Below are positions 5,977 to 53,728 of a DNA stretch of 64,000 bases, in pieces (the first letter of the stretch is position 1; every line of letters begins with the position of its first letter). The notes beneath the pieces are model-generated. The model worked only from the letters and a program-made list of their open reading frames with translations, did no database searches and had not been told where the DNA came from. Source of the DNA: an uncultured virus (IMG/VR IMGVR_UViG_3300045020_000151) (taxonomy: Duplodnaviria > Heunggongvirae > Uroviricota > Caudoviricetes); the IMG/VR virus record IMGVR_UViG_3300045020_000151. One strand, 5' to 3'. The position numbers were made by a program, and so were the translations under genes.

Positions 5977-6170
5977 GACTTCTCCATGAGCCAGCTCGGC
6001 CGAACTGGGAAGTGGAACTTGAACGTCCCCGGGATGATGCCCTCTTTGCCGTACTTGGCTTCTTCCTCCGGAGTGTTGGGCTCCTGCCAGGAGATCCGCA
6101 TCCAGATGAACCTCAAGATGTAGAGGTTCAAGAACCCGAGCACGCTCTGTGGGTAGGGCCGCTTCTCCAT
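5973..6170 (-). CDS. Hypothetical protein
   Basis: 65 aa ORF, ATGA overlap. Confidence 0.5.
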   Translation of the reverse strand: MEKRPYPQSVLGFLNLYILRFIWMRISWQEPNTPEEEAKYGKEGIIPGTFKFHFPVRPSWLMEKS

Positions 6171-6172
6171 GG

Positions 6173-6436
6173 CTAGACCTTCCGGATGTACTTCACCTTG
6201 AGGATGAGAGTCTCCTCACCAGTCGGTTCCGGATCACCGAGCTCCTTGGTCTCCGGATCCCGATGCGCCTTCACCTTCCGCTGGATGTCGTGGGTGCAGG
6301 AGATGATCTTCACTGCCTCCCCATCGATGGTGTGGATGACCTCGGACTCTTCCTTCTTATCCTTCCCGGACTTGTAGCCGACCACGACGGCCACAGAAGC
6401 GATGGGGAAGTTGTCGACGACATCTTTAGGCGGCAT
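6173..6436 (-). CDS. Hypothetical protein
   Basis: 87 aa ORF with GGAGG SD. Confidence 0.55.
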   Translation of the reverse strand: MPPKDVVDNFPIASVAVVVGYKSGKDKKEESEVIHTIDGEAVKIISCTHDIQRKVKAHRDPETKELGDPEPTGEETLILKVKYIRKV

Positions 6437-6794
6437 GTGATTCCGCCTCCTTTCGTGCGTTCTCGATGTAGTCCGCTGCCAATCTCAAGAGCACCGGATT
6501 GTCTTTGAAGCAGCCAAGTCCTACGTTGCAAGTCCAGCACAGCAAGCCGCGAACCCTTCCAGTTTCATGATCATGATCAACAGGAAAGAACATCTTCTTG
6601 GGTCCAGGATCGTCCGAATCACAGATGGCGCATCTACCATGTTGCCTTTTCAGTAGCTCTTCGTATTCCTCAACTGTGATGTCGTACTTCTTGAGCTGAT
6701 ACTGGAGAACCTTCTTTGGATTGTTCTTCCTCCACTCCTGTTGGTTCTGATTGAACCTCTCTCGATTTCTGGCTCGCCACTCCTTGAGACTCAC
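6426..6794 (-). CDS. Endonuclease VII-domain protein (possible homing endonuclease)
   Basis: YDITVEEY..L...Q..RCAIC...VDHDHETGRVRGLLCWTCNVGLG. Confidence 0.85.
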   Translation of the reverse strand: MSLKEWRARNRERFNQNQQEWRKNNPKKVLQYQLKKYDITVEEYEELLKRQHGRCAICDSDDPGPKKMFFPVDHDHETGRVRGLLCWTCNVGLGCFKDNPVLLRLAADYIENARKEAESHAA

Positions 6795-7165
6795 TTCTTC
6801 TCCGGAACCTGAGGCCTTCCTGAGTACACCCCAACTTCGACTCCAGGTTGGATGATCGCCAGCACGTCATCTGACGACATGATGAAGTACACCTTGTTCT
6901 CGCCGTTCTCCCACTTCTCTTCCGTCTCGATGGGGTTGGCGTACTTCAGGAAGCCTCGGTAGACGACTCGCTGCCCTGCTTCCAGACCGAGGTCGTGGTT
7001 CTTCTTGCCAGGTCCGAGACGGACAATGAGTCCGGCTCCTTCGGTGACCTTCTCCGCCCCGGTCTCGTTGCCAGGGAGGTAGATGCCTCCAGCGGTCTTA
7101 TCTTTCCTGGCATCAGCCAGGACGATTGCCCAGCCGTCCCTGGGCCGTACTTTGGTCGGGTCCAC
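6791..7165 (-). CDS. groES: Co-chaperonin GroES/Cpn10-like protein
   Basis: VRPRDGWAIV...KTAGGIYLPG...GLIVRLGPG...G.RVVY...YFIMSSDDVLAII. Confidence 0.75.
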   Translation of the reverse strand: MDPTKVRPRDGWAIVLADARKDKTAGGIYLPGNETGAEKVTEGAGLIVRLGPGKKNHDLGLEAGQRVVYRGFLKYANPIETEEKWENGENKVYFIMSSDDVLAIIQPGVEVGVYSGRPQVPEKK

Positions 7166-7459
7166 CTACCCCTCCGTCCCGCTGAGCTTCGCGAAGATGC
7201 CGTCCCGGAGCCACGTCGAGGCCACACCCTGCGGCGTCGTCTGCCGACTGATGCCGAGAGAGCGGCTCTCCAGCATATGGACGTTGTTGTCCCCGATGAC
7301 GGCCAGAGCTGTCACCTGCTGGTTCTGCTCGTCCATGAACGAGACGAGGGCCAGCTTAACGACCTTTGCGTCGATCACCGTCCTTGGGCCCGAGTTGATA
7401 CTCCCCACTGGGGGCGGGGCCGAGTGCGGCTTGGGTGCTTCCTGGTGTTGCTTGGCCAT
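7166..7459 (-). CDS. Hypothetical protein
   Basis: Start taken at ATG 7459 (MAKQHQ) after AAGGA SD. Confidence 0.55.
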   Translation of the reverse strand: MAKQHQEAPKPHSAPPPVGSINSGPRTVIDAKVVKLALVSFMDEQNQQVTALAVIGDNNVHMLESRSLGISRQTTPQGVASTWLRDGIFAKLSGTEG

Positions 7460-7703
7460 TGCCAGTTCCTTGCACGGGGAGAAGGGGAATCGTCGCGGGG
7501 ATCTTCCCCGTCTTGCATCCGCAGCGACGAATGACGATTGAGTCCACGACATCGAGTTGGTAGTCGATGGGCTTGCCGCAAGCCGGGCACATCTGTCCGA
7601 TGAAGTGCATCGGAGGGATGTTGCCCAGCCCGAGCGCTTTGAGAATCAAGTCGAGCTTGTACTCGACTCTGAGGATTGCCTCAGCCAGGTGATTGTCGCC
7701 CAC
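7356..7703 (-). CDS. Hypothetical Zn-finger protein (CPAC...CGC)
   Basis: 115 aa ORF. Confidence 0.55.
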   Translation of the reverse strand: MGDNHLAEAILRVEYKLDLILKALGLGNIPPMHFIGQMCPACGKPIDYQLDVVDSIVIRRCGCKTGKIPATIPLLPVQGTGNGQATPGSTQAALGPAPSGEYQLGPKDGDRRKGR

Positions 7704-8142
7704 TGTCCCTCCGCTTGGTCATCTTCACGATCTGTGCTCCCCGGGGACCAGCGCCCAGGTGAACGGTGATGCCGTTGTCCAGGTGAATCTCGTGCAGGTA
7801 GACCTTGCCGTTGCAGAGCTCCACGTCGGTGCTCTCGACCTTGTTGGCCACGAGCATGGCCTTGAGGACGAGGGGATCGTTGTTGAGTTCGTCCGGCAGG
7901 CCCATTCCGTTGATGGCCTGGTAGAGCTCCTTGCCGGTAAGATGGATGGGAGCTCGAAGCCTCTCCGTCATCGCAGTGATCGTCGGCTCTCCCACCAGAT
8001 TGATGGCTCCCCCACACAGCCTCGGGCATGGGCATGTCTGACCATCTTCGGACTGCACCTGCTTCACCAAGTCCATGTCGCTCGCCTGAACGAGCAACTG
8101 GTACGGCTGGAGACAGGTGTTGCAGAGGGAGCGAACAATCAC
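7681..8142 (-). CDS. Hypothetical Cys-rich protein (CNTC...CPCPRLC)
   Basis: 153 aa ORF. Confidence 0.6.
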   Translation of the reverse strand: MIVRSLCNTCLQPYQLLVQASDMDLVKQVQSEDGQTCPCPRLCGGAINLVGEPTITAMTERLRAPIHLTGKELYQAINGMGLPDELNNDPLVLKAMLVANKVESTDVELCNGKVYLHEIHLDNGITVHLGAGPRGAQIVKMTKRRDSGRQSPG

Positions 8143-9783: not shown

Positions 9784-10149
9784 CTACAGTTCCTCGTCAT
9801 CGGAGATGGGGAGTCCTTTGCGGAACTCCGGTCGCGTGTCAACCGGACGGGTATGCTCGACTACCCCTTCCGGCAAGCCTGGTGACGCTCCTGCATTCTT
9901 GAGAAGAGAGCGGTCGAAGGTAACCGGAGCGGTGTAGTTGTCCACCGGGTACGGCACCTTCGGATCCAGAGGTTCCTGGGGCAGCCCTCCCTGCCACTCA
10001 GTCTTGCACTGCCGGCACTTCCGGACCACCACCCCGCCGTGGGAACTGCCGTCGTAGTCGTTGGCCCCACAGTTCGGACAGCCGGTGGTTCGCTTCTCCC
10101 GCTCCGGGATGATGGTGGGGTTGCGAGCGAGTTTGGACTCTTCATCCAT
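9784..10149 (-). CDS. Zn-ribbon hypothetical protein
   Basis: CPNCG...CRQC. Confidence 0.6.
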   Translation of the reverse strand: MDEESKLARNPTIIPEREKRTTGCPNCGANDYDGSSHGGVVVRKCRQCKTEWQGGLPQEPLDPKVPYPVDNYTAPVTFDRSLLKNAGASPGLPEGVVEHTRPVDTRPEFRKGLPISDDEEL

Positions 10150-10185
10150 CGAGGGCCACAGTATGGGTGTACAGACGTTGTATGT

Positions 10186-10671
10186 CTAGCCCTTTGTGAA
10201 TCGGGCTGTGATAGAGGCGCATAACTGGACGAACTCATCATGGGTCAGGTTCGACTTGACCATGTTGATGGACTTGGTGACCCAACGGCAATTCTCAATG
10301 GAAAGGATTCCGCCTTTGGTGAGAGGCACTATGTGGTCGAGACTGGCATTCACTCCTGGAACCAGTTCAACCCCGGTGTAGAAGCACCGACCCTTTTGTT
10401 CATCCCAGAGATTGGCCAGGGGAGGTCCCATGGAACGAGTCCCGAAATGGATCGAGGCTACGTTCCGGAACCAGTCGTTGAGGCAAAGTGTGCCGACTGT
10501 GGCCGGAAGAGGACAGTGCAAACAGATACCATTCTCCTTCTTCCTCCGATAGTGCTCGGACCAGTTCGTCTTGTTCTTGGGTGTTCGCGGCGAACGGACT
10601 TTTGAACGTCCTACCGACGCGGCGAATTCGGTCGCTTTGGCCAACCTTCTTTGTCGATTGGTGAGTGCCAT
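10186..10671 (-). CDS. HNH endonuclease
   Basis: QKGRCFYTG...ASLDHIVPLTKGG...NCRWV...NMVK; start ATG 10671. Confidence 0.8.
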   Translation of the reverse strand: MALTNRQRRLAKATEFAASVGRSKVRSPRTPKNKTNWSEHYRRKKENGICLHCPLPATVGTLCLNDWFRNVASIHFGTRSMGPPLANLWDEQKGRCFYTGVELVPGVNASLDHIVPLTKGGILSIENCRWVTKSINMVKSNLTHDEFVQLCASITARFTKG

Positions 10672-10706
10672 GTACAACAGTACAAGTACTAGAGTACAGA
10701 CAAAAG

Positions 10707-10892
10707 TCAATGGGATTCGACAACGACCACCTTCGCGCCGATAGCCTTAGCATATCTCTCGATGGTGAGGATTGATGGATCCCCACAGTTCCCGCTCTCG
10801 ATGTTGTGCACCTGCTGCCTTGAAACCTTCATCTTCCGGGCAGCCTCGGAGGCAGTCATCCGCTTACGACGGACGCGGATGAGCGCCTTCAT
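10707..10892 (-). CDS. XRE-family helix-turn-helix regulator
   Basis: RKRMTASEAARKMKVSRQQVHNIESG...PSILTIERYAKAIG. Confidence 0.8.
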   Translation of the reverse strand: MKALIRVRRKRMTASEAARKMKVSRQQVHNIESGNCGDPSILTIERYAKAIGAKVVVVESH

Positions 10893-11181
10893 GACCTTTG
10901 TCACTGGCCGCTCCTGGGATTCCTCGGTAGACGCTGGCGTGAAGAACGAAGACGTTGCTCTCAATCTCCTTCTGGAAGACCGTCTTGATGATGGCCATCC
11001 CTGTTTCTTCATCGAAGTTCTTCGACATGCCGATTCGAACCTCGAAAGTGGTGACCTCACCCCTGGGGGCGGGTACCGCCTGGACCGATATGAAGAGGAT
11101 TCCGGCCGCCGGGGGCAGAATCCGGAGCCGGGATTCGATGTACTCGACGACCTTCTTGGCGTCTTCGCTGACGTAGTCCAT
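10864..11181 (-). CDS. Hypothetical protein
   Basis: Start taken at ATG 11181 (MDYVSED); first gene of the leftward operon. Confidence 0.55.
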   Translation of the reverse strand: MDYVSEDAKKVVEYIESRLRILPPAAGILFISVQAVPAPRGEVTTFEVRIGMSKNFDEETGMAIIKTVFQKEIESNVFVLHASVYRGIPGAASDKGHEGAHPRPS

Positions 11182-17059: not shown

Positions 17060-17662
17060 GTGGAATACCCAATCGTGATTTGGCCTGCTCCGGTTCTCCT
17101 GGAGCGGGCGAAGCCCTTCCTCTGGGATCCTCAAGACCCAGAGGCCAACGCGCTCTACCTGGACAAGCTCACTGCGGTGATGCTGGCCGCAATGATTCAT
17201 GCCCACGGCATCGGCATCGCTGCTCCGCAAATCGGAGAGTCGGTCCGGGTCGTCCTCGCCGTGGACAAGGCAGACCCGACCAGGAAGCTGCACACTCTCA
17301 TCAATCCGGAGATCATCGAGAACCACGTCGAGATCGATTCCAAGAATGAACAGTGCCTCTCACTTCCCGGAGAAGGTTTCGACGTTGTCCGCTTCAAGCG
17401 CATCCTGGTGAAGTACCAGGACATGGACGGCAAGTCCCAGACGATGTTCGCTGAGGGCTTCTTTGCCATCGAGCTCCAGCATGAGATTGACCATCTCGAC
17501 GGCAAACTCTTGGTCGACAAGGTGTCCCAGACGAAGAGGACGATGATTCGGGACAGGATGAACCTGTTGAAGAAGAAGCAGAAGCGAGCAGGTGACACCT
17601 GGCTGAATCTGGACGAGCTGGCGGAGAAGTTGCTCATCGCAGAAGCAGTGGCCTCTTCATGA
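17060..17662 (+). CDS. def: Peptide deformylase
   Basis: Motifs GIGIAAPQIG, EQCLS (EGCLS-like), QHEIDHLDG. Confidence 0.92.
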   Translation: MEYPIVIWPAPVLLERAKPFLWDPQDPEANALYLDKLTAVMLAAMIHAHGIGIAAPQIGESVRVVLAVDKADPTRKLHTLINPEIIENHVEIDSKNEQCLSLPGEGFDVVRFKRILVKYQDMDGKSQTMFAEGFFAIELQHEIDHLDGKLLVDKVSQTKRTMIRDRMNLLKKKQKRAGDTWLNLDELAEKLLIAEAVASS

Positions 17663-21237: not shown

Positions 21238-21887
21238 TGATTCAGGCGCGGTTCATCCAGGAGATTGGCACTCGTGGCTACCTGCGAGTGTACTGGGGAG
21301 ACAACTGCGTGAACTGCGGTGGCTCCAAAGCTCGCGGCTACCACAACACTCAGAAGCTCTTGAGCATCTCTCCGAAGAAGGAGGACTGGGATGCCTGGGG
21401 GAAAGTGAAGGACTACAAGCCGGAGCAATTCGGCAGCATGTGTGACCATTGTCCTGCATTGGTCCCACAGAACACTCTGAAGTACGGCTTCGATGAAGTT
21501 CCTGCCGTTCGCTACAACGATGTTCCCCACTACCAAATCTTCCACACGAGGAACTACAGCTCGGCCTCTGGAGATCCAGAAGAGGGGGATCTCTATTTGA
21601 CCACCTGGTACGGTTGCAGAGAGCGAGGTCGCTGCATCTACGGTTGGGAGAACTGTGACGGACAGCACCTCTTCGCCATCGTTCCAGGCGGGGACATCTG
21701 GGACATCCACAGTCGAGCCAGCAACTGCACCATGCCACAAGACAACAAGCATCGGTGCTGGGTCCTTCATGGAACTCCACCAAACGTCACGGTGGACAAG
21801 AACGGTCTGACTTGCGCAGCCGGCGCTGGTAGCATTCAGACTCGCAACTGGCACGGGTTCCTCCAAAACGGGAGATTCACTCCATGA
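21237..21887 (+). CDS. Cys-rich protein with DUF6527-like C-terminus
   Basis: Multiple CxxC; ends CAAGAGSIQTRNWHGFLQNGRF, similar to the upstream gene. Confidence 0.5.
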   Translation: MIQARFIQEIGTRGYLRVYWGDNCVNCGGSKARGYHNTQKLLSISPKKEDWDAWGKVKDYKPEQFGSMCDHCPALVPQNTLKYGFDEVPAVRYNDVPHYQIFHTRNYSSASGDPEEGDLYLTTWYGCRERGRCIYGWENCDGQHLFAIVPGGDIWDIHSRASNCTMPQDNKHRCWVLHGTPPNVTVDKNGLTCAAGAGSIQTRNWHGFLQNGRFTP

Positions 21888-22813
21888 AGAAGATCCTCTC
21901 CATTGATGGTGGCGGCATTCGCGGCATCATCCCAGCGAGGTTCTTGGCGGCTCTGGAGGCCAAGATTGGACCCTGCGCCAAGGCGTTCGATCTTATCGCC
22001 GGCACATCGACAGGTGGCATCATCGCGGTGGGTCTCACCCACCCCAACTCTGGAGGTCTGGGTTACACAGCAGCTCAACTCGTCGAGCTGTACCAGACGA
22101 GGGGCAAGGACATCTTCAGCCGGCCGGTCGGCTACGAGCTCGAAACCAGCTTCGGCGCCAGCGGTCCGAAGTACCCATCGGCGGGCATCGAGTCGGTCCT
22201 GGCGCAGTTCTTCGGTGGCACCAAGATGGGGCAGGCCCTGACGCCGGTCATGGTCACCAGCTACGACACGAACGAACCAGGACCTCGGTTCTTCAAGAGC
22301 TGGAACGACAAGGACGTCCTGATGAAGGACGCGGCCAGGGCCACGTCGGCAGCTCCGACGTACTTCGACCCCCTCCTCGCCGGGTCCTCCCGCTTCATCG
22401 ATGGAGGCGTCGTGGCCAACAACCCAGCTCTGGCGGCCTGGGTGGCTTCGTCAGAGATCTTCGGCGGCGACCAGGACATCTTCGTGGTCTCCCTGGGGAC
22501 TGGGAACACCGAGAAGAAGGAAGACCCGAAGGGCTGGGGACTGGTGAAGTGGGCACCTCTGCTCATCGACGTCTTCATGGACGGGAACAGTGACCTGGTC
22601 GACCAAAACATCAGGGAGGTCCTCGGCACCATCAACGCTGGCAAACAGGCCCACTACTTCCGCTACCAGGTTGATCTGGGCACCGTGACATCGAGCATGG
22701 ATGACGCGAGTCCTCCGACCATCGCAGCCCTCCTGTGGCTCGCCGACAAGCTGGTGGCGGAGAAGATGTACCTGATCGATCACATGGCCTCAGTCCTCTG
22801 GGGCAAGGCCTGA
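21884..22813 (+). CDS. Patatin-like phospholipase
   Basis: DGGGIRG glycine loop, GTSTG nucleophile elbow, SAAPTYF, DGG catalytic motif. Confidence 0.92.
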   Translation: MKKILSIDGGGIRGIIPARFLAALEAKIGPCAKAFDLIAGTSTGGIIAVGLTHPNSGGLGYTAAQLVELYQTRGKDIFSRPVGYELETSFGASGPKYPSAGIESVLAQFFGGTKMGQALTPVMVTSYDTNEPGPRFFKSWNDKDVLMKDAARATSAAPTYFDPLLAGSSRFIDGGVVANNPALAAWVASSEIFGGDQDIFVVSLGTGNTEKKEDPKGWGLVKWAPLLIDVFMDGNSDLVDQNIREVLGTINAGKQAHYFRYQVDLGTVTSSMDDASPPTIAALLWLADKLVAEKMYLIDHMASVLWGKA

Positions 22814-28470: not shown

Positions 28471-28486
28471 AGCTTGGAGGAATCAC

Positions 28487-28780
28487 ATGCCTGGCTTCAT
28501 TCCGGATTGCCCTAGCCTTTGCTCATGCGGCAAGCCTTGCACCGCTGGCAAGATCACCCACTCTTGCCACACCTGCGGCGTATACCCTCAGGGCTGCAGA
28601 ACCTTCGAAGCCCAGATGAGGCTGCGTCGCGCCACTCAATTGGTCTTGAATGGCTTCTTCGACAAGTACAAGCACCTGGGAGCTGAATGCCGGGAGGATC
28701 TCATCCTCTTGGTCTCCCAGCTCGTCGCCAGGCCTGCAAACGTCAACAGCGAAGACTGGAAGCTAAAGAGGAGCACATGA
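28487..28780 (+). CDS. Cys-rich hypothetical protein
   Basis: ATG 28487 after GGAGG. Confidence 0.55.
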   Translation: MPGFIPDCPSLCSCGKPCTAGKITHSCHTCGVYPQGCRTFEAQMRLRRATQLVLNGFFDKYKHLGAECREDLILLVSQLVARPANVNSEDWKLKRST

Positions 28781-29136
28781 ACGCATTACAGAAGAGCACG
28801 CAGAAGAAGGCCCTGAAGGGCAAGAAGCCGAAGTTCATCTATTCGAAGTGGGAGAACCTCAAGGTCTTCACTGACAAGCTTTTGGCCATCGAAGTCATGA
28901 ATGCGGTGAAGAAGCGATTCTTCAATCCCCCTCTACGCCTCTTCAAGGCCCCGGCGAAGATCAGTCCGTGGATCCTGGAGGGAGTCTATTGTCTTGAGAT
29001 GCGCTCGAAGCTCAACGAGGGGCAGATCCTAGGGGACAGCAATCTCTTCTATTCCAGAGTCCGGGCCTTCATCGACGGCTTCCTGGCATGCACAGAGATA
29101 ATCCTGAAGACCGGGAAGAGAGACTATGGCAGATAG
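28777..29136 (+). CDS. Hypothetical protein
   Basis: ATG 28777 (MNALQK) after GAGGAG. Confidence 0.6.
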   Translation: MNALQKSTQKKALKGKKPKFIYSKWENLKVFTDKLLAIEVMNAVKKRFFNPPLRLFKAPAKISPWILEGVYCLEMRSKLNEGQILGDSNLFYSRVRAFIDGFLACTEIILKTGKRDYGR

Positions 29137-29398: not shown

Positions 29399-29776
29399 GT
29401 GGCTGAGAACGAGAAGATGGTAGAGCCTGGGGTGAAGTCCGTCGAAGTGGAGATCCACCCAGAGGCCATTGCTCGGGTAATCAACATTCGCATCCCTGGT
29501 GAGCTCTTCGATGAAGTCCGAGAGGAAGCCAGAGAGTTCGGGCGGCCAGTCCAGACGCATCTCAAGGACATGCTTCGGGATTCGTTGGACAAGACTATCC
29601 CGAGCATCCAACGGGTCGTCCGGTCCGTCGCCTTGGAGCTCTTCGCCCAGCACTATCAGCCCATGCACCAAGGCGGTGAGACTGAAGAGGCCGATCAGCA
29701 GGCCTATGCCGATAAGGTGGCAGACCATTGCTGGCTTGGGGCAATCGCCTTCGTGAAGAGAGAGAAGAAGCCGTAA
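29399..29776 (+). CDS. Putative ribbon-helix-helix protein
   Basis: INIRIPGELFDEVREEAREFGRPVQTHLKDML; stop 11 nt before the array. Confidence 0.5.
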   Translation: MAENEKMVEPGVKSVEVEIHPEAIARVINIRIPGELFDEVREEAREFGRPVQTHLKDMLRDSLDKTIPSIQRVVRSVALELFAQHYQPMHQGGETEEADQQAYADKVADHCWLGAIAFVKREKKP

Positions 29777-29784
29777 AGAGCGAC

Positions 29785-30660
29785 ACTGACAATCCCAGCC
29801 GGTCCAGCTCTAGTCGCACTGACAAGCCACACCTGGGCGATTCGGCCCGCTTCGACAAACCTGGCCCTCCCAACTCAAGAGGACTGGCCGCTTCGCTACA
29901 TGCCACACTGACGGTCCTAACCGCTCCATACCCCAATGACGAGCCTACCCTAGTCTGCACACTGCCTGCCGAACAGACGGTCCTAGCCAGCCCGAGTCAA
30001 CTCTCACTGACAAGCCGATCCGATCCTGCACCAGCCGACATACCTAGCCCAGTCACATCTAGTTCCAGTCGACATATCCGCCCACACCCGTCAGACGAAC
30101 CTAATTCGTCCGGACCCAGCTTCACTGACAAATCACGCCACGTCGAGCCTCGCTGACAAACCCAGCCTCACCGTCCCAGTTGACATGCCCAGCCCAGCCA
30201 ATTCGGTTCTCGTCGACAGACTAGGCCATGCCGCATTGGTCCATGCAGACGAGACGATCTTGATCTGGGCAGTTCACGCTACACCGACAAGCCAATCCCG
30301 ACCGGGTCATCCATGGCCGACGAATCAAGCCGGACCTGGTCACTCAACACTGACGAGCTCCGCCTGGACATCTCTTCACTGACATGCCACCCCTCCCTGG
30401 ACTTCCTGACGTGCCCATCCAGCGCTTTCCCTTCCTTCCTGACATGCCGAACCATCCCGATACCAACCCGACTCTTCCTGACAAGCCACCCCGCACCAGC
30501 CCCATTTGACGTGCCGACCCTTCACTTCACACATCGGAGGCTGACCCCACCACACTGACTACCCAAACCGCGTCTTGTCACGACACGCCTGGCTGACGAG
30601 CCTCACTCTTCTCTATCTGGCCGAACTGACGAATCGTCCCAAACCGCTCTTCATCAAGCA
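29785..30660. repeat. Non-CRISPR guide-like array of ~27 units, GAC-(NN-NCC/NYC)n, 5-nt periodic (VIPR-like; GGY-like/NN on minus strand)
   Basis: GAC unit starts at 29788, 29821, 29854, 29882, 29910, 29938, 29976, 30009, 30037, 30071, 30094, 30127, 30155, 30182, 30215, 30248, 30286, 30319, 30352, 30381, 30408, 30441, 30480, 30508, 30557, 30595, 30628; 20 of 26 spacings are exactly 23/28/33/38. Confidence 0.85.
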
Positions 30661-30695
30661 CTGTTGTTCAACGTAGTACCCACAGGGAGCAATTC

Positions 30696-31418
30696 ATGAA
30701 CCTCAAAGAAGTAGATCTCTGGACCCGCGTCAGCATCACTCTCGCCATCCGCAACCGCATCGTCGGTGGCATTCCCTCAGACCCTGAACTCATCAAGGGT
30801 TGGATCGCCGCCAACATGCCTGATGTCGCGGCCGAGAAGCAGAAGGAGTTGGCCGAGAAGACCGCTGCCGAGCTCCATCAGGCGGCTGAGGAGAAGGCCG
30901 AAGGCATGTGGACGACCTTCAAGCGCACGCCCGAGGGCTGCTACATCGAAGGCAGACAGGTCAAAGCCCTCTTCAAGGAGTGCGCGAACATCCTCAGAGA
31001 GAAGCTCATCCAGGAGGAGAAGAAGGGCAAGAAGGCCGACGACGCCAAGAAGAGCGCATTCACCGGTCTGAAGGCCAAGCTGGCTGAGCGTCTCTTCGTG
31101 GAAGAGCATACGGTCTTTGTCACTCGTGGAGGCGCCAAACTGCCCAAGCCTGACGGCATGGAAGAGCGGGCCATCCATGTGGATACGGCCCAAGGACCTC
31201 GCACAGCCCTCAAGCGGGTGGACTTCATCAACGCTCCAGCTCAGGTGAAGTTCACCGTTCGCTACTTGGACGATGGGGTCATCAGCATGGATCTCATCAC
31301 ACTCATTCTGGAGTTCGGTGGCTGGAACGGCCTAGGCGCTGACCGTTCTCAAGGCAACGGACTCTTCGAGGTCGTGGAGATGCAGAAGCTGCCCAGCCGG
31401 CCGCACAAGGACAAGTAG
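30696..31418 (+). CDS. Solitary RAMP / Cas7(Csm3)-like RNA-binding protein (Vipr-like)
   Basis: N-terminal strand plus GG (ITLAIRNRIVGGIP), YIEGRQVKALFKE (cf. IPGSSxKGxxR), and C-terminal G-rich loop GLGADRSQGNGLFEV. Confidence 0.8.
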   Translation: MNLKEVDLWTRVSITLAIRNRIVGGIPSDPELIKGWIAANMPDVAAEKQKELAEKTAAELHQAAEEKAEGMWTTFKRTPEGCYIEGRQVKALFKECANILREKLIQEEKKGKKADDAKKSAFTGLKAKLAERLFVEEHTVFVTRGGAKLPKPDGMEERAIHVDTAQGPRTALKRVDFINAPAQVKFTVRYLDDGVISMDLITLILEFGGWNGLGADRSQGNGLFEVVEMQKLPSRPHKDK

Positions 31419-33604: not shown

Positions 33605-34081
33605 ATGGAGCCGTACGTGCGAGTCATAGTGATGAGAGGAGTGCCAGGTAGTGGCAAGACCGACTACATCAAGAAGCACTTCCCCGAAGCCTGGATCTGT
33701 TCGACCGACCGCTTCTTCATGTTGAAGGAAGGCGTCTACCGGTTCGATGGTGCCAATCTGGGAATAGCCCATGGCGAATGCCTCCGGGAGTTCACTAGAG
33801 CGGTGGCAATTGCCAGTCTGGGTGGCAAAACGGAGTTCGACGTCATTGCAGTGGACAACACCAACATCACGGTGGCGGAGATGGCTCCATACTGCGCCCT
33901 GGCTCAGGCCTACGGCCATGAACTCCTGCTCATCACTCTCATGTGCGACCCGGACAAGGCTGCTGCCCGGGGTCTTCATGGGGTGACCGCAGCAAAGACT
34001 TGGGACATGAACGACAGGATGCTGCGAGAGAACTACCGCATCCCCCACTGGTGGCCACAGCTAGTTGAAAGAGGTGACTGA
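33605..34081 (+). CDS. P-loop kinase (AAA_33 / polynucleotide-kinase-like)
   Basis: MRGVPGSGKT Walker A, CSTD, VDNTN. Confidence 0.85.
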   Translation: MEPYVRVIVMRGVPGSGKTDYIKKHFPEAWICSTDRFFMLKEGVYRFDGANLGIAHGECLREFTRAVAIASLGGKTEFDVIAVDNTNITVAEMAPYCALAQAYGHELLLITLMCDPDKAAARGLHGVTAAKTWDMNDRMLRENYRIPHWWPQLVERGD

Positions 34082-37148: not shown

Positions 37149-39466
37149 TAGCGAAGTAGAGGATAGCGCCTGATGGTCCCCTTCCAAACAACGAACACTC
37201 TCTGGGTTGTCGGCTTTCCACCGACTACGACCTGCATGGAGGTGTCGTAGACGTTGTACCCGTTGTCTTGGAACTTCGTCTTTAGCCTTTCGACGCTTCC
37301 CAGTTTGGACAGGTCGATTTGGATGGGTCCATCGAAGAGCTTTAGAGCGAAGACTGTCTGATTGTAGGCAATCACAACCGGATCTTCCACTATGCTCAAG
37401 GATTCGCTGAGTCTGATCGCCTCGGGCAGCTCTGGGTCCAACCTCATCATGTAACCCAATGCTTCAGAGATGGGGACAGGATCAGAGAGTGAAACCTTAA
37501 GGGTACGTCCGACCGTCCAGCTATCCGAGAGGGGCACATCTTCGATGAGAGGCAGGAGTCCAGCCCACCTGGAGCTTAGGCTTTCGGACAGTGACCAATG
37601 ATCTGGAGCTACAACTCTGGCTCCAAGGCTCACGAAGATGGCATCACTCCAGGACACCGTCTCGGACAAGTGAGCGGAAGCGGAGAAGAGTTCTCTGGAG
37701 CCCTCCGTTATGGGCAGACCCTCATTGAATGAAATCTCATTGAGGGTGTGAGCGTGGGGCAGGAGTTGAGCGAAGCGGGCTCTGATTTGAAGAGGTATGT
37801 TCTGCTCAACGAACGATTCTACGTACGAGACGGCATCTGCCAATGGGATGCGCATCCCGTGAATGGCTCTCAATCCCTCCCCGTTGGGGACTGTCTCTGA
37901 AAGATGCAGGAGCTGCCCTTTGCCAACCTCGATAGCCTGTTCTTGAATGCGGACGTACTCTGGTAGTCCTACGACGGCCTGGTGTTGCATCCCAAAAGCT
38001 TCGAACAGCGCAAAGCTCTCATGAAAAGTGTAGGTGGAGTGCAGGCTGATGCTGAATGCCTCGGCCAGACCCAGGGACACAGGGAGTATCAGATGCTGAC
38101 CCCGAGAGACTGAAACCCTGGCGAAGTGAGAGAGCGACTCGCTGAGGCTATTGGAATAGCCCATTCGAACTCTCAGGCTCTCTGAGAGTGTCCATGGCTC
38201 ACTCAAGACCAGATGCTCCGATCCGACACCGACCAAAGATTCATGAATCGAATCGGTCTCCGCCAGTATCTGGGCATAGTGGAGACGGAGAGTCGCCAAC
38301 TCAGAAGCCGGAATCGATTCAGATAGGGAAATGGACATCCCCCTATGAGCCGACAGGTTCTCCACAAGTCCTGCGGTCTCGATGAGAGCTGATCGCAGAT
38401 GGGCCGCTACGCCCAAGGCTTCGGTTAGCATTTCCGACTCTGAGAGATGGGGCTTGGCAGAGAATTGAGAAGCCAGGAACTCTGACAGTCCAATGGATTC
38501 GCTCAGCACCTGATGGGTGGAATGAACGGTCGCCAAGGTCTCATGAAACCCAACTGTTTCCGATATAGGAACGATGGCCGAAAACCGGGTCGCTAGGGCT
38601 TCAACAAAGCCCACCGATTCCGCCAGACCGATCAGAGCTCTGTAGGCAGAAGCAATCGAATCCGACCATGGCACTGCTTCAGAGAGATGTTGGGTGCCAA
38701 CGAAATGAGATGCTTGGGACTCGGTAAGCCCAATCGTCTCGGCCAATCCAACTAGGGCCCTCAGATGGGCAATCAGCGCCTCAATCAGAGATATCGATTC
38801 TGCAAGAGCTACTCTCGTCCCATGGGAGACAGCGATGGCTTCGGTCCATGAAACAGTTTCAGATAGAGGAAGAGTGCCTGAGTAGCGGGTCGCGGCGACT
38901 TCGAAGAGCGTCACCGTTTCAAGGAGACCCTGAAAGGCATGACGAACGACTGCGACCGCCTCGGCCCAGCCCACCGTCTCAGCCAAAGCTGAATGGATGT
39001 GAAGGATGACCGCCAGTGCATCGCTCCAGGGTACGGTCTCCGAGACAGATGCGTGCGTGGCATAGTGAGAGGTCAGAGCCTCTATCAGACCAATGGTCTC
39101 AGCGAGAGCCGGTTTGGCTCGGTAGATGACTCCTATTCCATCCCCAAGAGCTCCACTCTCATTGAGCGCCACTTTGGAACGGTAGAGAGCCACCAACAAC
39201 TCAGAGGTGGAAACGGTCTCTGAGATGGGAGCAACCGCCCCATACCGTGCAGCTAAAGCCTCGCTGATAGTGAGGGACTCAGAGAAGTGGACGGAATCCT
39301 TCAGAACAGCAACCAGGGCTTCGCCCACAGTCACCGTCTCGGAAAGACCCTGAATCGAATGCTGATGCTCTACAGCTCCTTCAACGAGTGGGACTGTCTC
39401 GAAGATAGGCGCTATGTAGGCAGCGTATAGATTCTGCCGAACCAGGGGGATGAAGGCCCCCAGCAT
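37148..39466 (-). CDS. Putative virion fibre protein with ~20-aa tandem repeats
   Basis: 772 aa; repeats xE[TS]hxhxEAh... every 20 aa. Confidence 0.7.
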   Translation of the reverse strand: MLGAFIPLVRQNLYAAYIAPIFETVPLVEGAVEHQHSIQGLSETVTVGEALVAVLKDSVHFSESLTISEALAARYGAVAPISETVSTSELLVALYRSKVALNESGALGDGIGVIYRAKPALAETIGLIEALTSHYATHASVSETVPWSDALAVILHIHSALAETVGWAEAVAVVRHAFQGLLETVTLFEVAATRYSGTLPLSETVSWTEAIAVSHGTRVALAESISLIEALIAHLRALVGLAETIGLTESQASHFVGTQHLSEAVPWSDSIASAYRALIGLAESVGFVEALATRFSAIVPISETVGFHETLATVHSTHQVLSESIGLSEFLASQFSAKPHLSESEMLTEALGVAAHLRSALIETAGLVENLSAHRGMSISLSESIPASELATLRLHYAQILAETDSIHESLVGVGSEHLVLSEPWTLSESLRVRMGYSNSLSESLSHFARVSVSRGQHLILPVSLGLAEAFSISLHSTYTFHESFALFEAFGMQHQAVVGLPEYVRIQEQAIEVGKGQLLHLSETVPNGEGLRAIHGMRIPLADAVSYVESFVEQNIPLQIRARFAQLLPHAHTLNEISFNEGLPITEGSRELFSASAHLSETVSWSDAIFVSLGARVVAPDHWSLSESLSSRWAGLLPLIEDVPLSDSWTVGRTLKVSLSDPVPISEALGYMMRLDPELPEAIRLSESLSIVEDPVVIAYNQTVFALKLFDGPIQIDLSKLGSVERLKTKFQDNGYNVYDTSMQVVVGGKPTTQRVFVVWKGTIRRYPLLR

Positions 39467-47574: not shown

Positions 47575-48522
47575 ATGAACATCTCAGGGGGCAACGGCAT
47601 CCTCGACATCAACGGCGTCGAGGTCCGTTACATGGCCCCGGACGACCTCTTCATCGAGGAGGAGTTGAAGTATGTCGATGTCTTCGGATTGGTGCCGTTC
47701 ATAGCCAATCTGGCCTACGACAGGGATACGAAGACCTGGGATCCACCCAACGTCCTTCTCAATGGTCCCACTGGCACTGGCAAGAGTCTCTTCTTCGCCC
47801 ACTTCTCTCAGGCCTACAAGATGCCCTACCTCTCCTTGGATTGCAGTGAGGGAACGAGGGACAGACATCTCAAGGGCGGATACACCGTCAACAGCCAGGG
47901 TTCCACTCCTTTCATCCTGGGTACGGTAGCCAATGCGGTTCAGGTGGCCAACGAGTACGGGCTAGCGATGCTCGTCTTCGAAGAGCTCAACGCTCTCTCG
48001 CCTCAGCTTCAGAAGGACGTGAACGCCCTCACAGATTTCAGGAAGAAGATTGAGGTCCCGGAGTTGAGCTACCGTTTCTCCCTGCTGCCTGGGAAGAGGC
48101 TCTTCATCGGTGCCACAATGAACCCCGCTGTCTACGGGGGCACCTACGAGCTCAACCGGGACCTGAAGAACAGGTTCATCGAGGTTGACGTCCCCTACCC
48201 GCCACCGGACCAGGAAAAGAAGCTCCTTCGGGCGATGGCTCCAGCCCTGCCCGAGGACACTCTGAACAGGCTCGTGGACATCGCCCAACACACCAGGCAG
48301 GAGGCAACGGCCTATTCCCTATCACCGAGAGATCTCGTTCAGGTCATCTCCATGATTCCAAGGGTGGGTTGGACCGATGCGCTGTTCCTGGCGGCCCAGA
48401 AGTTCTCCGATGCGGATCGGACGCTCATCATCGACCGCATCAAGGACATCACCAAGACTTCCATCTACCCGGACCTCACCGAAAGGATGAAGGTCCTCAA
48501 CATAGGAGGCAGCACCGCATGA
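47575..48522 (+). CDS. MoxR-family (CbbQ/NirQ/CobS-like) AAA+ ATPase
   Basis: GPTGTGKS Walker A, LVFEELN Walker B, ATMNP...L..RF. Confidence 0.85.
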   Translation: MNISGGNGILDINGVEVRYMAPDDLFIEEELKYVDVFGLVPFIANLAYDRDTKTWDPPNVLLNGPTGTGKSLFFAHFSQAYKMPYLSLDCSEGTRDRHLKGGYTVNSQGSTPFILGTVANAVQVANEYGLAMLVFEELNALSPQLQKDVNALTDFRKKIEVPELSYRFSLLPGKRLFIGATMNPAVYGGTYELNRDLKNRFIEVDVPYPPPDQEKKLLRAMAPALPEDTLNRLVDIAQHTRQEATAYSLSPRDLVQVISMIPRVGWTDALFLAAQKFSDADRTLIIDRIKDITKTSIYPDLTERMKVLNIGGSTA

Positions 48523-48791
48523 AGAACCAACAGGCTGACCTGCAGCTAGCGCTGTTCCCGCCGCCTCCAGTGAGGCTGACTGAACGACAGCGCCTGCGTA
48601 CGACCATGCAGGAACTCGTTTCGAATCCGCTCGCTGCAGTGAAGAAGGGGGATGTGACGGACGCAAAGTGCCCAAGCTGCGACCAGCCAAAGGCTGTGGT
48701 CAAGACCATCCTCGGGGCTCGGATGCTCGTCACGTGCTTGAACGAGCCCTGCAAGTACACCTTCCGCATGGAGACTCCGACTCTCAAATGA
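48519..48791 (+). CDS. Zn-ribbon hypothetical protein
   Basis: CPSC...C...C; ATG 48519. Confidence 0.55.
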   Translation: MKNQQADLQLALFPPPPVRLTERQRLRTTMQELVSNPLAAVKKGDVTDAKCPSCDQPKAVVKTILGARMLVTCLNEPCKYTFRMETPTLK

Positions 48792-50731
48792 GCACCACAG
48801 AGGAAGAGGTTGATAGGCAGCTACAAGAGATTGACCTCATCCGCCGGCGGCATCGCATCTACTCGGGGATTGTGGGCAAGGATTTGGATCTCCTGCCCAC
48901 AGCCCCTCCGGGTCGGACTGACTGCGAGAGCTACATTGCGGTGCCATTCGAAGATCCACAAGCCGGGCTCGTGCACCAACACGAATGGCAGCACGTCTTC
49001 TTCAAGAGTGACTTGAGAGCTCGCACGGCCTTCGTTGAGGACTATCTCAACCGAATCGATTTGCAGCGACCAGGCATCTTCAGTCCTGGATTCAGCCACC
49101 ATTCAACGAATGTCGGTCGAGCTGAAGTTGCGGACTTCTTGCATGCCTTCATCAATGGGCTCGACGACCTCCGGGTCTGTTCGCTCTGGGAAGGGCCCTA
49201 TCCTCAATCAGCCGAGGACATCCAGAACAGATGGAAGCGGATCCTGGTAGGCCACAAGAAGTATGACAAGGACATCACGATGTACATGATGGCCTTGGGG
49301 CTTGGACTTCGACACGAGGCTGGACAGCTTGGTGGGTCCTATTGGAGACGCTACGAGAAGGTTCTCATCGATGGGACCGACAAGGTGAAGAAGAGCACCT
49401 TCGCAGCTTGCCTCATCGCAGCCAGGTGGATCCTCGACTCCATCATCGACGACATGTGGAACCTCTCGAAGATGGGAGCGGAGTCCTACAAGCTTCCAGT
49501 ACCAGAGCCAGCTAAGAGTCTATCGAGTGGAGCTCCAGCTCCTGCTCTTAGCTCTGGGTTCGGAAAGCCTGTAGTTCATCGAGCTGAAGAGGAACAGCCC
49601 AAGCTGCATCGAGGTTCTGACACCCAGGCTCCAATCAACTCGGCTCTCACCAAGTTCGTTGAGGGCCACGCGGTGGCTGTGCGTGCGGATCCAAACGGCA
49701 ACGGGCCCATGATGGACACCAATGTCGTGCCCAATGGTCCTGACCCCAACTACAAGCACACCAGGCAGATAGTCGACGCAGCAATGGGCGTCTCGACCAG
49801 CGACCAGGTGCAAATCCTGCTGGCACAGGCCCAGGTCGAAATCGAGAAGGTCATTGCCACATTGAAAGGGAGGACCAAACAACTCACACCAGATCAGAAG
49901 CTTCTCAAGGGATTGGAGGGACACGTCTCATTCTTCGATGTGAAGCCCGAAGACGTGGACGAGCTCAAGCTCCAGCCTGAGGACGGTAGGGCCATTCAGG
50001 TCCTCCATCAGGAGTTCTCCAGGCTTCGAGGACGCAAAAGGCTGCAGATGAGCGACTCGGGTTCAGTCCTGGATCCACGGGCCTACATCGATTTCACGAC
50101 TGGCAGCGGAGATGCAGACATCTTCGAAGAGGAGACCACGTCGAAAGGGTTCTCGGCGCTCATCCTCCTCGACATGAGCGGTTCCATGCTGGATGACTGG
50201 CAGTCGGTATCAAGGGCCTGCAAGGTGCTGGCGAAGGCACTGAAGTTCCCATTCGCCAGCTTGGACGTGTGGGGTTTCAGTTCTGACAGGCACGGCAAGA
50301 TCAACATCATGAGGTTCCTGGACATTGAGAAGGGCTACAGCGGAGAGAAGCTGACGTCGAAGGCCTGGGGCCTCACGCCTTTGCACCTTACGTCTGAGGT
50401 GGCTATCCGCAAGCTCGCGTCAGTGCCCAGCACCTCGAAGCACCTCTTCATCCTCACGGACGGAGTGCCGGTGCACCTATCAGCGCTCGGTCACGCTGCA
50501 ACCATCGAGGACATGATCACCGAGATGGCGTTCTTCATCGAACAAGGTCGAAAGAAGAAGATCCACACCACGGGTTTGGTGATAGGGTACGAAGTCGAAG
50601 ACAACATCGCCGATGTGATGTTCGGACACCGGCGGTTTTGGCATCGGATAGACAGCGAACGCGGCGAGCTCTTTCATTCACTCGTTACGTTGGTGAGGCA
50701 GTCGTTCGTCAACTATCTGAGAGGGAACTGA
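48788..50731 (+). CDS. VWA-domain protein with N-terminal HExxH (CobT-like partner of the AAA+ ATPase)
   Basis: HEWQH; MIDAS LLDMSGSM...TP...ILTDG; start ATG 48788. Confidence 0.8.
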   Translation: MSTTEEEVDRQLQEIDLIRRRHRIYSGIVGKDLDLLPTAPPGRTDCESYIAVPFEDPQAGLVHQHEWQHVFFKSDLRARTAFVEDYLNRIDLQRPGIFSPGFSHHSTNVGRAEVADFLHAFINGLDDLRVCSLWEGPYPQSAEDIQNRWKRILVGHKKYDKDITMYMMALGLGLRHEAGQLGGSYWRRYEKVLIDGTDKVKKSTFAACLIAARWILDSIIDDMWNLSKMGAESYKLPVPEPAKSLSSGAPAPALSSGFGKPVVHRAEEEQPKLHRGSDTQAPINSALTKFVEGHAVAVRADPNGNGPMMDTNVVPNGPDPNYKHTRQIVDAAMGVSTSDQVQILLAQAQVEIEKVIATLKGRTKQLTPDQKLLKGLEGHVSFFDVKPEDVDELKLQPEDGRAIQVLHQEFSRLRGRKRLQMSDSGSVLDPRAYIDFTTGSGDADIFEEETTSKGFSALILLDMSGSMLDDWQSVSRACKVLAKALKFPFASLDVWGFSSDRHGKINIMRFLDIEKGYSGEKLTSKAWGLTPLHLTSEVAIRKLASVPSTSKHLFILTDGVPVHLSALGHAATIEDMITEMAFFIEQGRKKKIHTTGLVIGYEVEDNIADVMFGHRRFWHRIDSERGELFHSLVTLVRQSFVNYLRGN

Positions 50732-51868: not shown

Positions 51869-53728
51869 CTACGGCTCAATCCAAGACGTGCCGTTGCAGT
51901 AGGCCAACTTGTTGTTGGTGGAGTCGTAGAACTGAGCTCCTGGGCCAACTGTGGTCGAGTTGATCGAAGACAGCGCCGAGCCACAGACCGGAAGGCTCGC
52001 GTTCGCGACGCTGGGCATGATGGGAGAGCAACCCTTTCCGCTGATGCACTGGATGTAGGAAGGCTGCTGGTTCGTCGATAGTCCGTACCATGCCGTGGCC
52101 TGATTCCCGTCCATCAGGGTGATGCCCGAGATGTTGGTGTACGTCCAAAACGTGCCGGTCTGGTTCAGCTCGATGTCGTGGGTGTTCGTGGTGAAGGTGA
52201 CGTCCCCGACCGAGGCACGCACCTTCGCTCCCAACACCAGTTCGACTCCGATTCCGTTGTTGGAGAAGACCGGACCGTTCGTGAATCGGAACCCATAGGG
52301 TCCAATGGCGATCATACCTCCGGTGGCGTTGTTGTTGTACGTACCGCCGATGACTCGTCCACCACCTCCGTTGGCGAAGGTGTTCCCGGAGGTGAAGCTG
52401 GAGAAGTACAGACCCCACCCTCCACTCGTGTTCTCGATGTCGTCGTACCGGAATTCACTCTCACCCGGCCCAGCGAGGGAATAGGTACCGAGCGTCTGCG
52501 GAGCGAAGCCCCAGAAGGAGTTGAAGAAGGAATTGATGGTTCCTGGGGCTGGGATCCAGTCACCCGTTGCGGCTGACCTGACGCTCGCATAGGCAAAAGC
52601 GCCTGTATCTCCAACGTTCCCCAACAGGACTGGAGGCACTCCGGCGAAGGATCCGCCGTGACCCACAGGTCCGGAGAAGCCGACGTTGGCAGTGACGTTG
52701 CCAAGACCAGCGTAGTTCTCCACCAGAGCGACGTTGTTGGAGTTCGTCCACTGGAAGATGGCGGAGACGGTGCCATTGGTAGATCCGGTGGTCGGCATTG
52801 CCTTGTTGAATCGGGCGGTGATGCAGTCGGAGTCCCTGGCGAAGAGCAGAGTCCCGCCGGCGGTCATCTTGAAGCCGGTGAGCGTGAAGCCTGGCATTGT
52901 GGCCGTGACGATGTTGCCCGACGTGTTCGTTCCGTTCGCGTATGGGGCTGTAGCGCTGCACCGACTGTCGGAGACGATGAAGTGAGCGTAGTTGGCGATC
53001 TGTCCGTAGCTCTGCCCGAAAGTGGCCACGGCCGAGGATTGGAGAGCCTGGTTCGTCGCCGCAGGCAATGGAAGTCCTGCATCCACGAGCAGACAGCCAG
53101 GCTCTGCAAGAGCGAACGTAGTGGTGGTGTCAGCGAAGGGCTCTGTCTCATCCAGGGCCACGAAAGCGTCGTTGCCGTCGTTGCTGACGATCTGAGCGCA
53201 ACGACCAGACCCAGTACCTCCGGTGTTGCACCACATGAGCCCACGGAGTCCGGCGTCTGCCCATCCGGCGCCACCACTCACGGTGAGAGAGACGAAAGCC
53301 CCGGTCCCACCTCCAGTGGCGCTCACAGCCCCTGACGTGGGCAATCCAGCTCCGGCATCGACGTTATAGTTCCAGCCGTACCCACCGTCTGCGTACATGC
53401 AGGCGATTTCGAACCAGGCTCCTCCGTCACTCACCACCTCAGGGTGGTTGCTGGGGATGTAGGCGCCGGCGTTGTAGGTGCCTGGGATGACAGCGATGGT
53501 GACGGGAGATTGCTTCCGAACCGGTGTGTTGTTCACCGCCCCCTGAATCGATGCACACGGAGCGGCTGAGGTTGGCCCACATCCCACCCCGTCCACTCCG
53601 CCAGACGAGTTGACCCAGATGGTTCTGGGTGTGGTGGGTGGGGCGACGAGGTCGTTCTTGCGAGCGTACTGGCTGAGCTGAGCGTATGCGCTCGTGGAAA
53701 GCAGGAGGGCGATGAGTGCTTTCTTCAT
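51869..53728 (-). CDS. Beta-helix (pectin-lyase-like) tailspike/fibre-like protein with apparent signal peptide
   Basis: MKKALIALLLSTSAYAQ; IWVNSSGG.D...PCASIQGAVN...I...GTY; G/N-rich beta repeats; C-terminal FYDSTNNKLAYCNGTSW. Confidence 0.6.
   Translation of the reverse strand: MKKALIALLLSTSAYAQLSQYARKNDLVAPPTTPRTIWVNSSGGVDGVGCGPTSAAPCASIQGAVNNTPVRKQSPVTIAVIPGTYNAGAYIPSNHPEVVSDGGAWFEIACMYADGGYGWNYNVDAGAGLPTSGAVSATGGGTGAFVSLTVSGGAGWADAGLRGLMWCNTGGTGSGRCAQIVSNDGNDAFVALDETEPFADTTTTFALAEPGCLLVDAGLPLPAATNQALQSSAVATFGQSYGQIANYAHFIVSDSRCSATAPYANGTNTSGNIVTATMPGFTLTGFKMTAGGTLLFARDSDCITARFNKAMPTTGSTNGTVSAIFQWTNSNNVALVENYAGLGNVTANVGFSGPVGHGGSFAGVPPVLLGNVGDTGAFAYASVRSAATGDWIPAPGTINSFFNSFWGFAPQTLGTYSLAGPGESEFRYDDIENTSGGWGLYFSSFTSGNTFANGGGGRVIGGTYNNNATGGMIAIGPYGFRFTNGPVFSNNGIGVELVLGAKVRASVGDVTFTTNTHDIELNQTGTFWTYTNISGITLMDGNQATAWYGLSTNQQPSYIQCISGKGCSPIMPSVANASLPVCGSALSSINSTTVGPGAQFYDSTNNKLAYCNGTSWIEP

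Follow-up and report, generated by a model that had tools for sequence, protein, structure and literature searches.

The window analyzed here is a 64,000-nucleotide (nt) stretch of DNA from an uncultured virus of the class Caudoviricetes (IMG/VR record IMGVR_UViG_3300045020_000151). Near its middle lies an array of short units built from five-base steps, followed by a gene for a 240-amino-acid (aa) Cas7-like protein of the RAMP superfamily (Table 1). Together, the array and the gene very probably constitute a VIPR-type RNA-guided system on a phage-like element. This kind of system is already known, as the VIPR preprints of 2026 describe the same kind of array with a RAMP. The locus is a variant of VIPR, and what is new is the periodic C on the strand of the gene and the replacement of the residues that read G. 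It is the adjoining Cas7-like gene that makes sense of the array.

VIPR, described only recently, is related to CRISPR: a protein filament displays alternate pairs of RNA bases, which read double-stranded DNA. The text of the founding preprint describes a minimal RAMP carried by phages (Vipr), in many cases accompanied by a single accessory gene (vap). The guide RNAs (vrRNAs) are rows of YNNGG pentamers, and their NN pairs recognize double-stranded DNA with one target base skipped per repeat (10.64898/2026.04.26.720920). The preprint lists seven types, all GGY/NN or related G-based forms (NNNGG, YNNNG, NNNNG), and its array styles include "staggered arrays," where the end of one vrRNA is the start of the next. 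The architectures that small-RNA sequencing is described there as confirming are the ribozyme-interspersed and single-vrRNA ones; staggered arrays are not among them. Stand-alone vipr genes are described as well (10.64898/2026.04.26.720920), so vap is not strictly defining for VIPR. The GGY-type of one coliphage clade is the only VIPR dissected in detail. In Escherichia phage SUSP1, altering GGY is stated to abolish silencing (10.64898/2026.04.26.720920). Satellites and solo vrRNAs are the subject of a further preprint (10.64898/2026.10.15.759431).

A pentamer array and a Cas7-like gene

Each unit of the array has a delimiter of ~8 nt (consensus cACT-GAC, core GAC) and then 4-9 nn+NCC steps. 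The 26 parsed units span 29788 to 30627, each starting with GAC, and a 27th GAC unit begins at 30628. A first-pass annotation, made from the letters of the window alone, had divided the region by hand into GAC-delimited units, and this parse was reproduced exactly, all 26/26 units beginning with GAC where they had been placed. Recounting also gave the same lengths: 20/26 are 3+5n and six are off by one (34, 27, 29, 27, 39 and 49 nt). The naive binomial P is 6.8e-10, for a parse that had some freedom because 38 GACs occur in the region. The triplets of the 150 pentamers in the 26 units are mostly NCC (74) and NTC (27), as the annotation had it, and 118 are C-final (the composition gives an expectation of 0.157 for CC). 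Its junction consensus of about RCTGACRWRCC matches the one derived here, nCCnnnCT-GAC-R-W-R-CC. The dinucleotides vary between units, as had also been noted: all 16 are present at the NN positions, and every unit is different. A unit holds 4-9 NN pairs, mostly 5-7 (10-14 informative bases).

The period of five is evident from base autocorrelation, for which 300 mononucleotide shuffles of the array region served as the control. The z values are 6.1 at lag 5, 6.0 at lag 28, 9.6 at lag 33, and 6.2 at lag 38, and lags 3 (z -3.3) and 6 (z -2.0) are depleted, so the array has no codon rhythm and nothing in it points to translation. When lag-5 identity was scanned along the window in sliding segments of 200 nt, the maximum (0.43) fell in the array, which is the sole stretch above the mean plus 4 standard deviations (window mean 0.243, standard deviation 0.033). 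Of the periodicity checks that the annotation had proposed, autocorrelation thus bore it out and Fourier analysis did not: strict period-5 power in 100-nt windows failed to single out the array region, because each GAC shifts the phase by 3. Lag-5 identity was used instead. The pentamer CTGAC occurs 14 times inside the array (16 per kb) versus 1.1 per kb outside, and its reverse complement GTCAG occurs once inside, with no enrichment. The feature is therefore strand-specific. Folding of the array RNA against 20 shuffles per strand gave only a weak signal (plus strand z +1.58, minus strand z -0.22). The possibility that CUGA/GUC belongs to a box C/D or hammerhead RNA was considered and rejected, given that other loci use GCGAC, CCGAC and similar delimiters, that Rfam matched no family in the 64-kb window, and that units of 28-38 nt are too small for a ribozyme core.

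Table 1. Features of the window; positions count from its first nucleotide.
Feature	Position	Strand	Remarks
Putative pentamer guide array	29786..30660	+ (C-rich reading = strand of neighboring gene)	27 GAC-led units
vipr-like gene	30696..31418	+	240-aa single-RRM RAMP, Cas7 fold; 36 nt downstream of array
Presumptive Shine-Dalgarno-like GGGAG	30685..30689	+	6 nt before vipr-like ATG; read from sequence
Arc/CopG-like ribbon-helix-helix gene	29399..29776	+	ends 10 nt before array
Peptide deformylase	17060-17662	+	Pfam E 2.5e-38, PHROG 2890; auxiliary gene seen in phages
Patatin-like phospholipase	21884-22813	+	Pfam E 2.7e-25; PADLOC defense-system "Effector phospholipase" models E 4e-68; PHROG 25573 E 1e-56
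Small P-loop kinase-like protein	33605-34081	+	AAA_33 E 2.9e-11; ~2 kb downstream of vipr-like gene
MoxR-like AAA_5 ATPase	47575-48522	+	E 9e-13
Long ORF near MoxR-like gene	48668-50731		no family
Long ORF near MoxR-like gene	51869-53728		no family; weak tail-protein match
Long ORF near MoxR-like gene	55408-58758		no family

The protein encoded next to the array possesses a long beta-hairpin thumb at ~154-178 (tip TAQGPRT) and a glycine-rich loop (G-loop), NGLGADRSQGNGLF, at 211-224. Its AlphaFold2 (AF2) model has a pLDDT of 86.4 and a pTM of 0.77. The top Foldseek matches of the model in the PDB are a Cmr-beta chain, Csm3, and type VII Cas7 chains (E 1e-7 to 1e-5), and those in BFVD are three phage proteins (E 2.5e-16 to 2.3e-8), one of which is named RAMP superfamily protein. 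PADLOC gave weak Csm4 matches (E ~1e-3) over the C-terminal glycine-rich loop, and no match was found in Pfam or PHROG or by sequence in the PDB. A predicted homotrimer scored 0.59 versus 0.02 for the best control, with a head-to-tail interface and no RNA in the model; at least 56% of contacts were shared between runs, and the partner pLDDT was at least 73. In the calibration, the mark was reached by 20/30 solved pairs and 1/23 single chains. The homotrimer's pass may echo the solved Cas7 filaments.

SUSP1 provides the reference for this protein. Its Vipr was located here as a 195-aa open reading frame (ORF) at 28474-29061 on the minus strand of the SUSP1 record, with numbering that agrees with the text of the cryo-electron microscopy preprint, and the GGT/NN repeats lie on the same strand as the vipr gene. 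Alignment of this family's profile with a profile of 21 SUSP1-type proteins by hhalign gave a probability of 78% and an E of 1.9e-5 over 124 columns, a match that spans helix-1, the thumb, and the G-loop. A tblastn search of phage records with this family did not reach SUSP1.

Relatives of the 240-aa protein number 345 in a word-indexed search and 2133 representative clusters in a profile search (E<=1e-3). Invariant motifs in a 27-sequence alignment are NRxVGGxP, HVxTAQGPRTALK, and NGLGADRSQGNGxF. The related loci, designated by L numbers, were drawn from 20 IMG/VR viral contigs and 4 contigs binned with bacteria, the bins pointing to Actinomycetes/Acidimicrobiia as likely hosts; scanning viral contigs with the single protein returned no relative, and an alignment-based scan recovered them. 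The family is also carried by Microcystis phage Mae-JY09. In most of the 24 loci, the strongest lag-5 signal adjoins the RAMP homolog. With a chain defined as at least four NNN[C/T]C pentamers in a row, chains on the strand of the gene are found in 23/24 loci (L013 has none) and lie no more than ~300 nt from the gene in 19/24. Two loci (L006 and L007) have only weaker clusters of 5 chain starts near the gene, and in two near-identical loci (L021 and L022) the chains are 2-4 kb away. The opposite strand carries just two small chain clusters across the 24 loci. Under a stricter threshold of at least 5 chain starts, applied to 25 loci and the window, there are 36 C-type clusters on the gene's strand and a single small one on the other. 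The arrays are found upstream of the RAMP gene, downstream of it, at a distance, or on both sides. The array of the window thus fits the published description, as judged from sequence, of at least four tandem pentamers beside a lone RAMP on phages.

The grammar is kept among relatives whose proteins are only 30-40% identical. Across 16 arrays, the 5' context of the delimiter varies (CTGAC, CCGAC, ACGAC, TCGAC, GCGAC) around a constant GAC core, and the delimiter is really ~8 nt long (aaYGC-GAC, for example). Among the 256 units of up to 60 nt in these arrays, 131 have a length of 3 mod 5 and 73 one of 4 mod 5. NCC accounts for 64% of the pentamers overall, for 84% of those adjoining GAC, and for a share that drops to 36% by the seventh, and its first base is free across the family (GCC 351, CCC 198, TCC 193, ACC 156). 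Turnover proceeds by whole units. The arrays of the sister phages L008 and L009 have the same flanking units and differ by a block of ~9 units, in place of which L009 has one hybrid unit. This hybrid unit (L009 3436-3462 versus L008 4965-5201) has the first unit of the missing block as its head and the last as its tail, and it looks like a deletion through recombination between units. L016 and L020 have 1 identical unit in common.

The first-pass annotation had regarded the region as an array of short guides that carry their information in the NN positions and are not a product of slippage. This view was largely right and is partly supported, with further support from the grammar kept across relatives and from the whole-unit turnover between sister phages. 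It had also suggested GAC as a plausible processing or capping site giving guides with 4-7 NN positions, and each unit may be a guide of its own. It overlooked the adjoining Cas7-like gene; the link to this gene and the VIPR mechanism are added here.

Several relatives show arrangements of their own. L004 has three arrays in the same orientation (6040-6794, 6944-7932, and 9926-11027) around one vipr-like gene, for ~2.8 kb of guides in total. L189, the closest relative with genomic context (62% identity), has two units upstream of its gene (3110-3200) and further units after a small downstream ORF (4150-4400). The array of Mae-JY09, whose protein is 30% identical, is C-type. Directly after it, on the strand of the gene and with ~70 nt of the linear record still to come, is a strong 12-bp hairpin of ~-25 kcal/mol in a 44-nt window (L027 5128-5157; record ~38880-38910).

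The strand of the proposed guide

By homology with SUSP1, we infer transcription, processing at GAC, RNA binding, and DNA targeting. The array would be transcribed and converted to short RNAs. The Cas7-like protein would polymerize along the guide RNA with one protomer per five-base step, each protomer clamping the fixed triplet and leaving two variable bases exposed. The exposed NN pairs would jointly read double-stranded DNA by a gapped code, and a competing phage or mobile element would be silenced. As to the strand, the chances are even that the guide is the C-rich one, made in the same transcript as the gene, with nn+NCC steps and a 5' handle ending in GAC on each unit. The ~8-nt handles would be where the transcript is cut into guides of 25-40 nt, and the fixed CC would be read by an altered glycine-rich loop, in which GxG-A-D-R-S-Q replaces GxG-D-W-R.

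For a C-rich guide, the arrays of the family keep one orientation wherever they are located. The spacers at the ends of the arrays are ~0-50 nt, and the arrays are embedded in strings of plus-strand genes. In L189, the first delimiter overlaps the stop codon of the upstream gene, and the last unit ends ~10 nt before the ribosome-binding site of the vipr gene. In the window, the GGGAG sits ~25 nt past the fading end of the array. Such spacers are too short for separate promoters, which favors guides made with the gene.

The base that recurs differs between families. One detector was applied to three families to find the periodic base on the vipr strand. The SUSP1 family is G-type in 71/79 loci (8 mixed) and a gut-phage family in 81/82 (1 mixed). 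Outside this family, guide and gene are thus co-oriented as a rule. This family, read on the gene's strand, is C-type in 17/25 loci, with 6 mixed, 2 weak, and 0 G-type; the 6 mixed loci arise because the G of the frequent GCC triplets also recurs every 5 nt. The chain starts of the family are 463 CC versus 25 GG. The text of a survey reports 99 period-5 clusters, of which 21 have non-canonical fixed triplets, and gives GAC, CAC, WGT, and TGH as forms that are not G-based, so the fixed part of VIPR guides does evolve (10.64898/2026.10.21.760802).

The residues that contact the fixed bases differ as well. The text of the cryo-electron microscopy preprint places one Vipr protomer on each repeat, with G1 read by H17 and D177, G2 read by R138 and W178, and a pyrimidine pocket formed by E71, M72, R179, C173, and T175 (10.64898/2026.04.26.720927). 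In the alignment, the G-reading D177 and W178 of SUSP1 correspond to A215 and D216 here, and E71 and M72 of helix-1 correspond to R87 and Q88. R87 and Q88 at pocket positions are consistent with a free third base of the triplet. The glycine-rich loop reads GVG-D-W-R in SUSP1, GIG-Q-W-R in the gut phages, and GLG-A-D-R-S-Q in this family. Among 260 proteins of the family, the loop pair is AD in 130, AS in 20, AN in 16, AE in 13, TD in 11, and SD in 10, with 10 unparsed and the rest scattered, and an aromatic residue is never the second member of a parsed pair. The 120 proteins of the SUSP1 family have DW in 72, DY in 22, TW in 5, and DF in 3. The gut-phage protein is 25% identical to the 240-aa protein and keeps QW in its loop (GIGQWR). 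Its arrays (L028 4615-5110, L029 4585-4900, L109-L188) are irregular, NNNNG-type, and of period 5, and are situated directly downstream of the gene, on the gene's strand, with no clear delimiter. An argument from inversion of whole arrays, based on a GCGTCG delimiter in the gut-phage arrays, was dropped, as there are just 3 GTC in 496 nt, irregularly spaced. A polarity test on these arrays was also made, and they are too irregular to yield a result.

The same VIPR system could instead use the G-rich minus strand, in which case the arrays would run opposite to the gene and be transcribed antisense to it, giving GGN/NN guides with a short 3' GUC element. This is a serious contender, held to be less probable than guides from the C-rich strand, toward which the analysis leans. 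The text of the founding preprint calls all seven types G-based and lists NNNGG (10.64898/2026.04.26.720920), and the other strand of the array is exactly GGN/NN with a 3' GUC. Moreover, this family has members in NCBI and is probably within the PSI-BLAST set of that preprint, and changes to GGY abolish silencing in SUSP1. On the minus strand, the delimiter, the conserved element of the unit, lies 3' of the best-phased pentamers, like the 3' tail of type II. R217 aligns with R179 of SUSP1, and R174 aligns with R138 of the thumb. However, antisense guides would need opposite-strand promoters inside the neighboring genes, given the short spacers at the array ends. The bias of 36 clusters to 1, in all placements, would not be expected if the antisense units were independent, guide and gene share an orientation in the other two families analyzed, and the G-reading D177 and W178 are replaced. 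An array that acts as DNA, either as a row of binding sites (for example, a partition site or operator of a ribbon-helix-helix protein) or as a G-quadruplex or i-motif stretch, is improbable. Ribbon-helix-helix proteins bind tandem short repeats, an Arc/CopG-like gene ends just before the array, and the GGNNN runs of the minus strand could form two-tetrad quadruplexes. Such a gene is not kept beside the arrays elsewhere, though, and the RAMP alone is common to all 28 loci. Double-stranded sites also leave the strict strand bias relative to the RAMP gene unexplained, and hypervariable NN positions with unit-wise turnover suit guides, not operators. A decaying or neutral slippage satellite, or an unrecognized coding region, is more improbable still. 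Several units degenerate toward their ends, and the array is overlapped by short ORFs, none longer than 142 aa. Against this, codon periodicity is absent and none of the 4 overlapping ORFs has a Pfam match, on which grounds a coding region was rejected. The units all differ, yet their grammar is conserved along with the linkage to the gene, and Tandem Repeats Finder reports just two short rows over the array region.

Besides the G-based types of the preprint and the 3' position of the delimiter on the minus strand, other results count against a VIPR system with C-rich guides. Alignment of the family profile with the single SUSP1 sequence by hhalign was weak (E 0.009, probability 4%). The correlation between loop and base comprises three families only and is confounded by descent. 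The 4-9 NN pairs of a unit, versus 9-16 in type II, would offer little specificity for a single guide. Under the rule of one skipped nt, 104 guides gave 45 perfect matches in 413 kb of DNA from related phages, from which the arrays had been masked, versus 43.9 +/- 9.2 for order-shuffled guides, and no skip from 0 to 4 was enriched; the database is far too small for patterns of 10-14 nt to weigh either way. No sigma-70-like promoter was found on either strand between 28400 and 32000 (0 sites). Terminator-like hairpins, counted when stronger than the 2nd-percentile background of the locus, follow 3/13 downstream arrays on the plus strand (a fourth is borderline) and 2/13 on the minus strand, which does not discriminate between the strands. 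Lastly, an untranslated C-rich RNA of 0.9 kb would be a good substrate for Rho. The main text of the founding preprint does not contain the terms "C-rich," "cytosine," "same strand," or "co-transcribed" (10.64898/2026.04.26.720920), and the main text of the satellite preprint does not contain "C-rich" or "cytosine" (10.64898/2026.10.15.759431).

Known systems and neighboring genes

VIPR type II, found in SUSP1 and a Pseudomonas fulva prophage, is similar to the present locus in having a lone small Cas7-like RAMP on a phage, without cas genes or CRISPR repeats. Both have non-coding tandem pentamers with a fixed triplet and a hypervariable NN, and head-to-tail self-assembly is predicted here. 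The vrRNAs of SUSP1 are ~100 nt long with 9-16 GGY/NN repeats on the gene's strand and, judged from sequence, are each preceded by an element of their own and followed by a structured 3' tail of ~35-60 nt. In contrast, the array of the window is composed of 27 back-to-back units of 4-9 steps with a delimiter of ~8 nt and no tail. It also differs by the free third base of the triplet, the C on the gene's strand, A215/D216, and the lack of a conserved vap. In its G-rich reading, the array agrees with what the founding preprint (legend of fig. S18 and Methods) says of both staggered arrays and NNNGG-type repeats.

The backbone of class 1 CRISPR-Cas systems (Cas7/Csm3/Cmr4) shares with this system the fold, the thumb, the G-loop, and the turnover of whole units, as well as a conserved handle of ~8 nt by the variable part and, as predicted for this system, one subunit per fixed RNA step. 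The step here is 5 nt instead of 6, and the repeats are ~8 nt instead of the longer (>20 nt) direct repeats of CRISPR. The "spacers" here carry the CC rhythm and thus are not captured foreign DNA, unlike those of class 1 CRISPR-Cas. TIGR-Tas systems are likewise phage-associated tandem guide arrays detected by periodicity; the survey text gives TIGR arrays a period of 18 nt and the effector FpTasA (10.64898/2026.10.21.760802). A TIGR-Tas identity was rejected here, since the period is 5, the units are 28, 33 or 38 nt, and the protein has a RAMP fold. The logic of triplet plus spacer also recalls the trp RNA-binding attenuation protein (TRAP), whose subunits form an oligomer and hold one fixed triplet each, with 2-3 free bases between the triplets. 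TRAP has an unrelated fold and forms a closed ring, and its free bases are spacers, not a code.

Apart from the RAMP, no neighbor is conserved across the 28 loci, where no family occurs in more than 4/28 (RAMP shadow ORFs set aside), and there is no conserved vap candidate next to the vipr-like genes. The ribbon-helix-helix protein encoded before the array (Pfam Arc E 2.2e-4, just above the cut-off; PHROG Arc-like repressor E 6.9e-4) might serve the system as a DNA-binding accessory, but no such neighbor is conserved in the relatives. PADLOC, run on 20 neighboring ORFs for a cas operon, matched only the RAMP itself (weak Csm4). Pfam and PADLOC scans around the array detected no cas1/cas2, Cas5, Cas6, or effector genes, and no second RAMP gene turned up among the window ORFs put through the family scans.

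The 64-kb window is composed mostly of ORFans with few matches to phage families, and its phage nature is taken from its relatives. A 39-nt piece of it, sought as an exact match, did not turn up in the IMG/VR viral contigs. Other genes noted for their matches, together with the long ORFs near the MoxR-like gene, are given in Table 1. The small P-loop protein also matches the AAA part of the PADLOC CARF-PDDEXK-AAA model and a PHROG RNA-ligase family.

Meaning for the VIPR family

The array of the window is a clean and long example (27 units) from a much larger branch of VIPR that comprises 2133 representative clusters. If antisense transcription proves true, there would be a whole family with obligate antisense transcription of its guides. 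If the guides are C-based, the bases held by the clamp can change completely while the NN code is kept, and the clamp would be evolvable. C-based guides would also provide orthogonal pairs of Vipr and guide, along with naturally multiplexed, compact arrays of very short guides.

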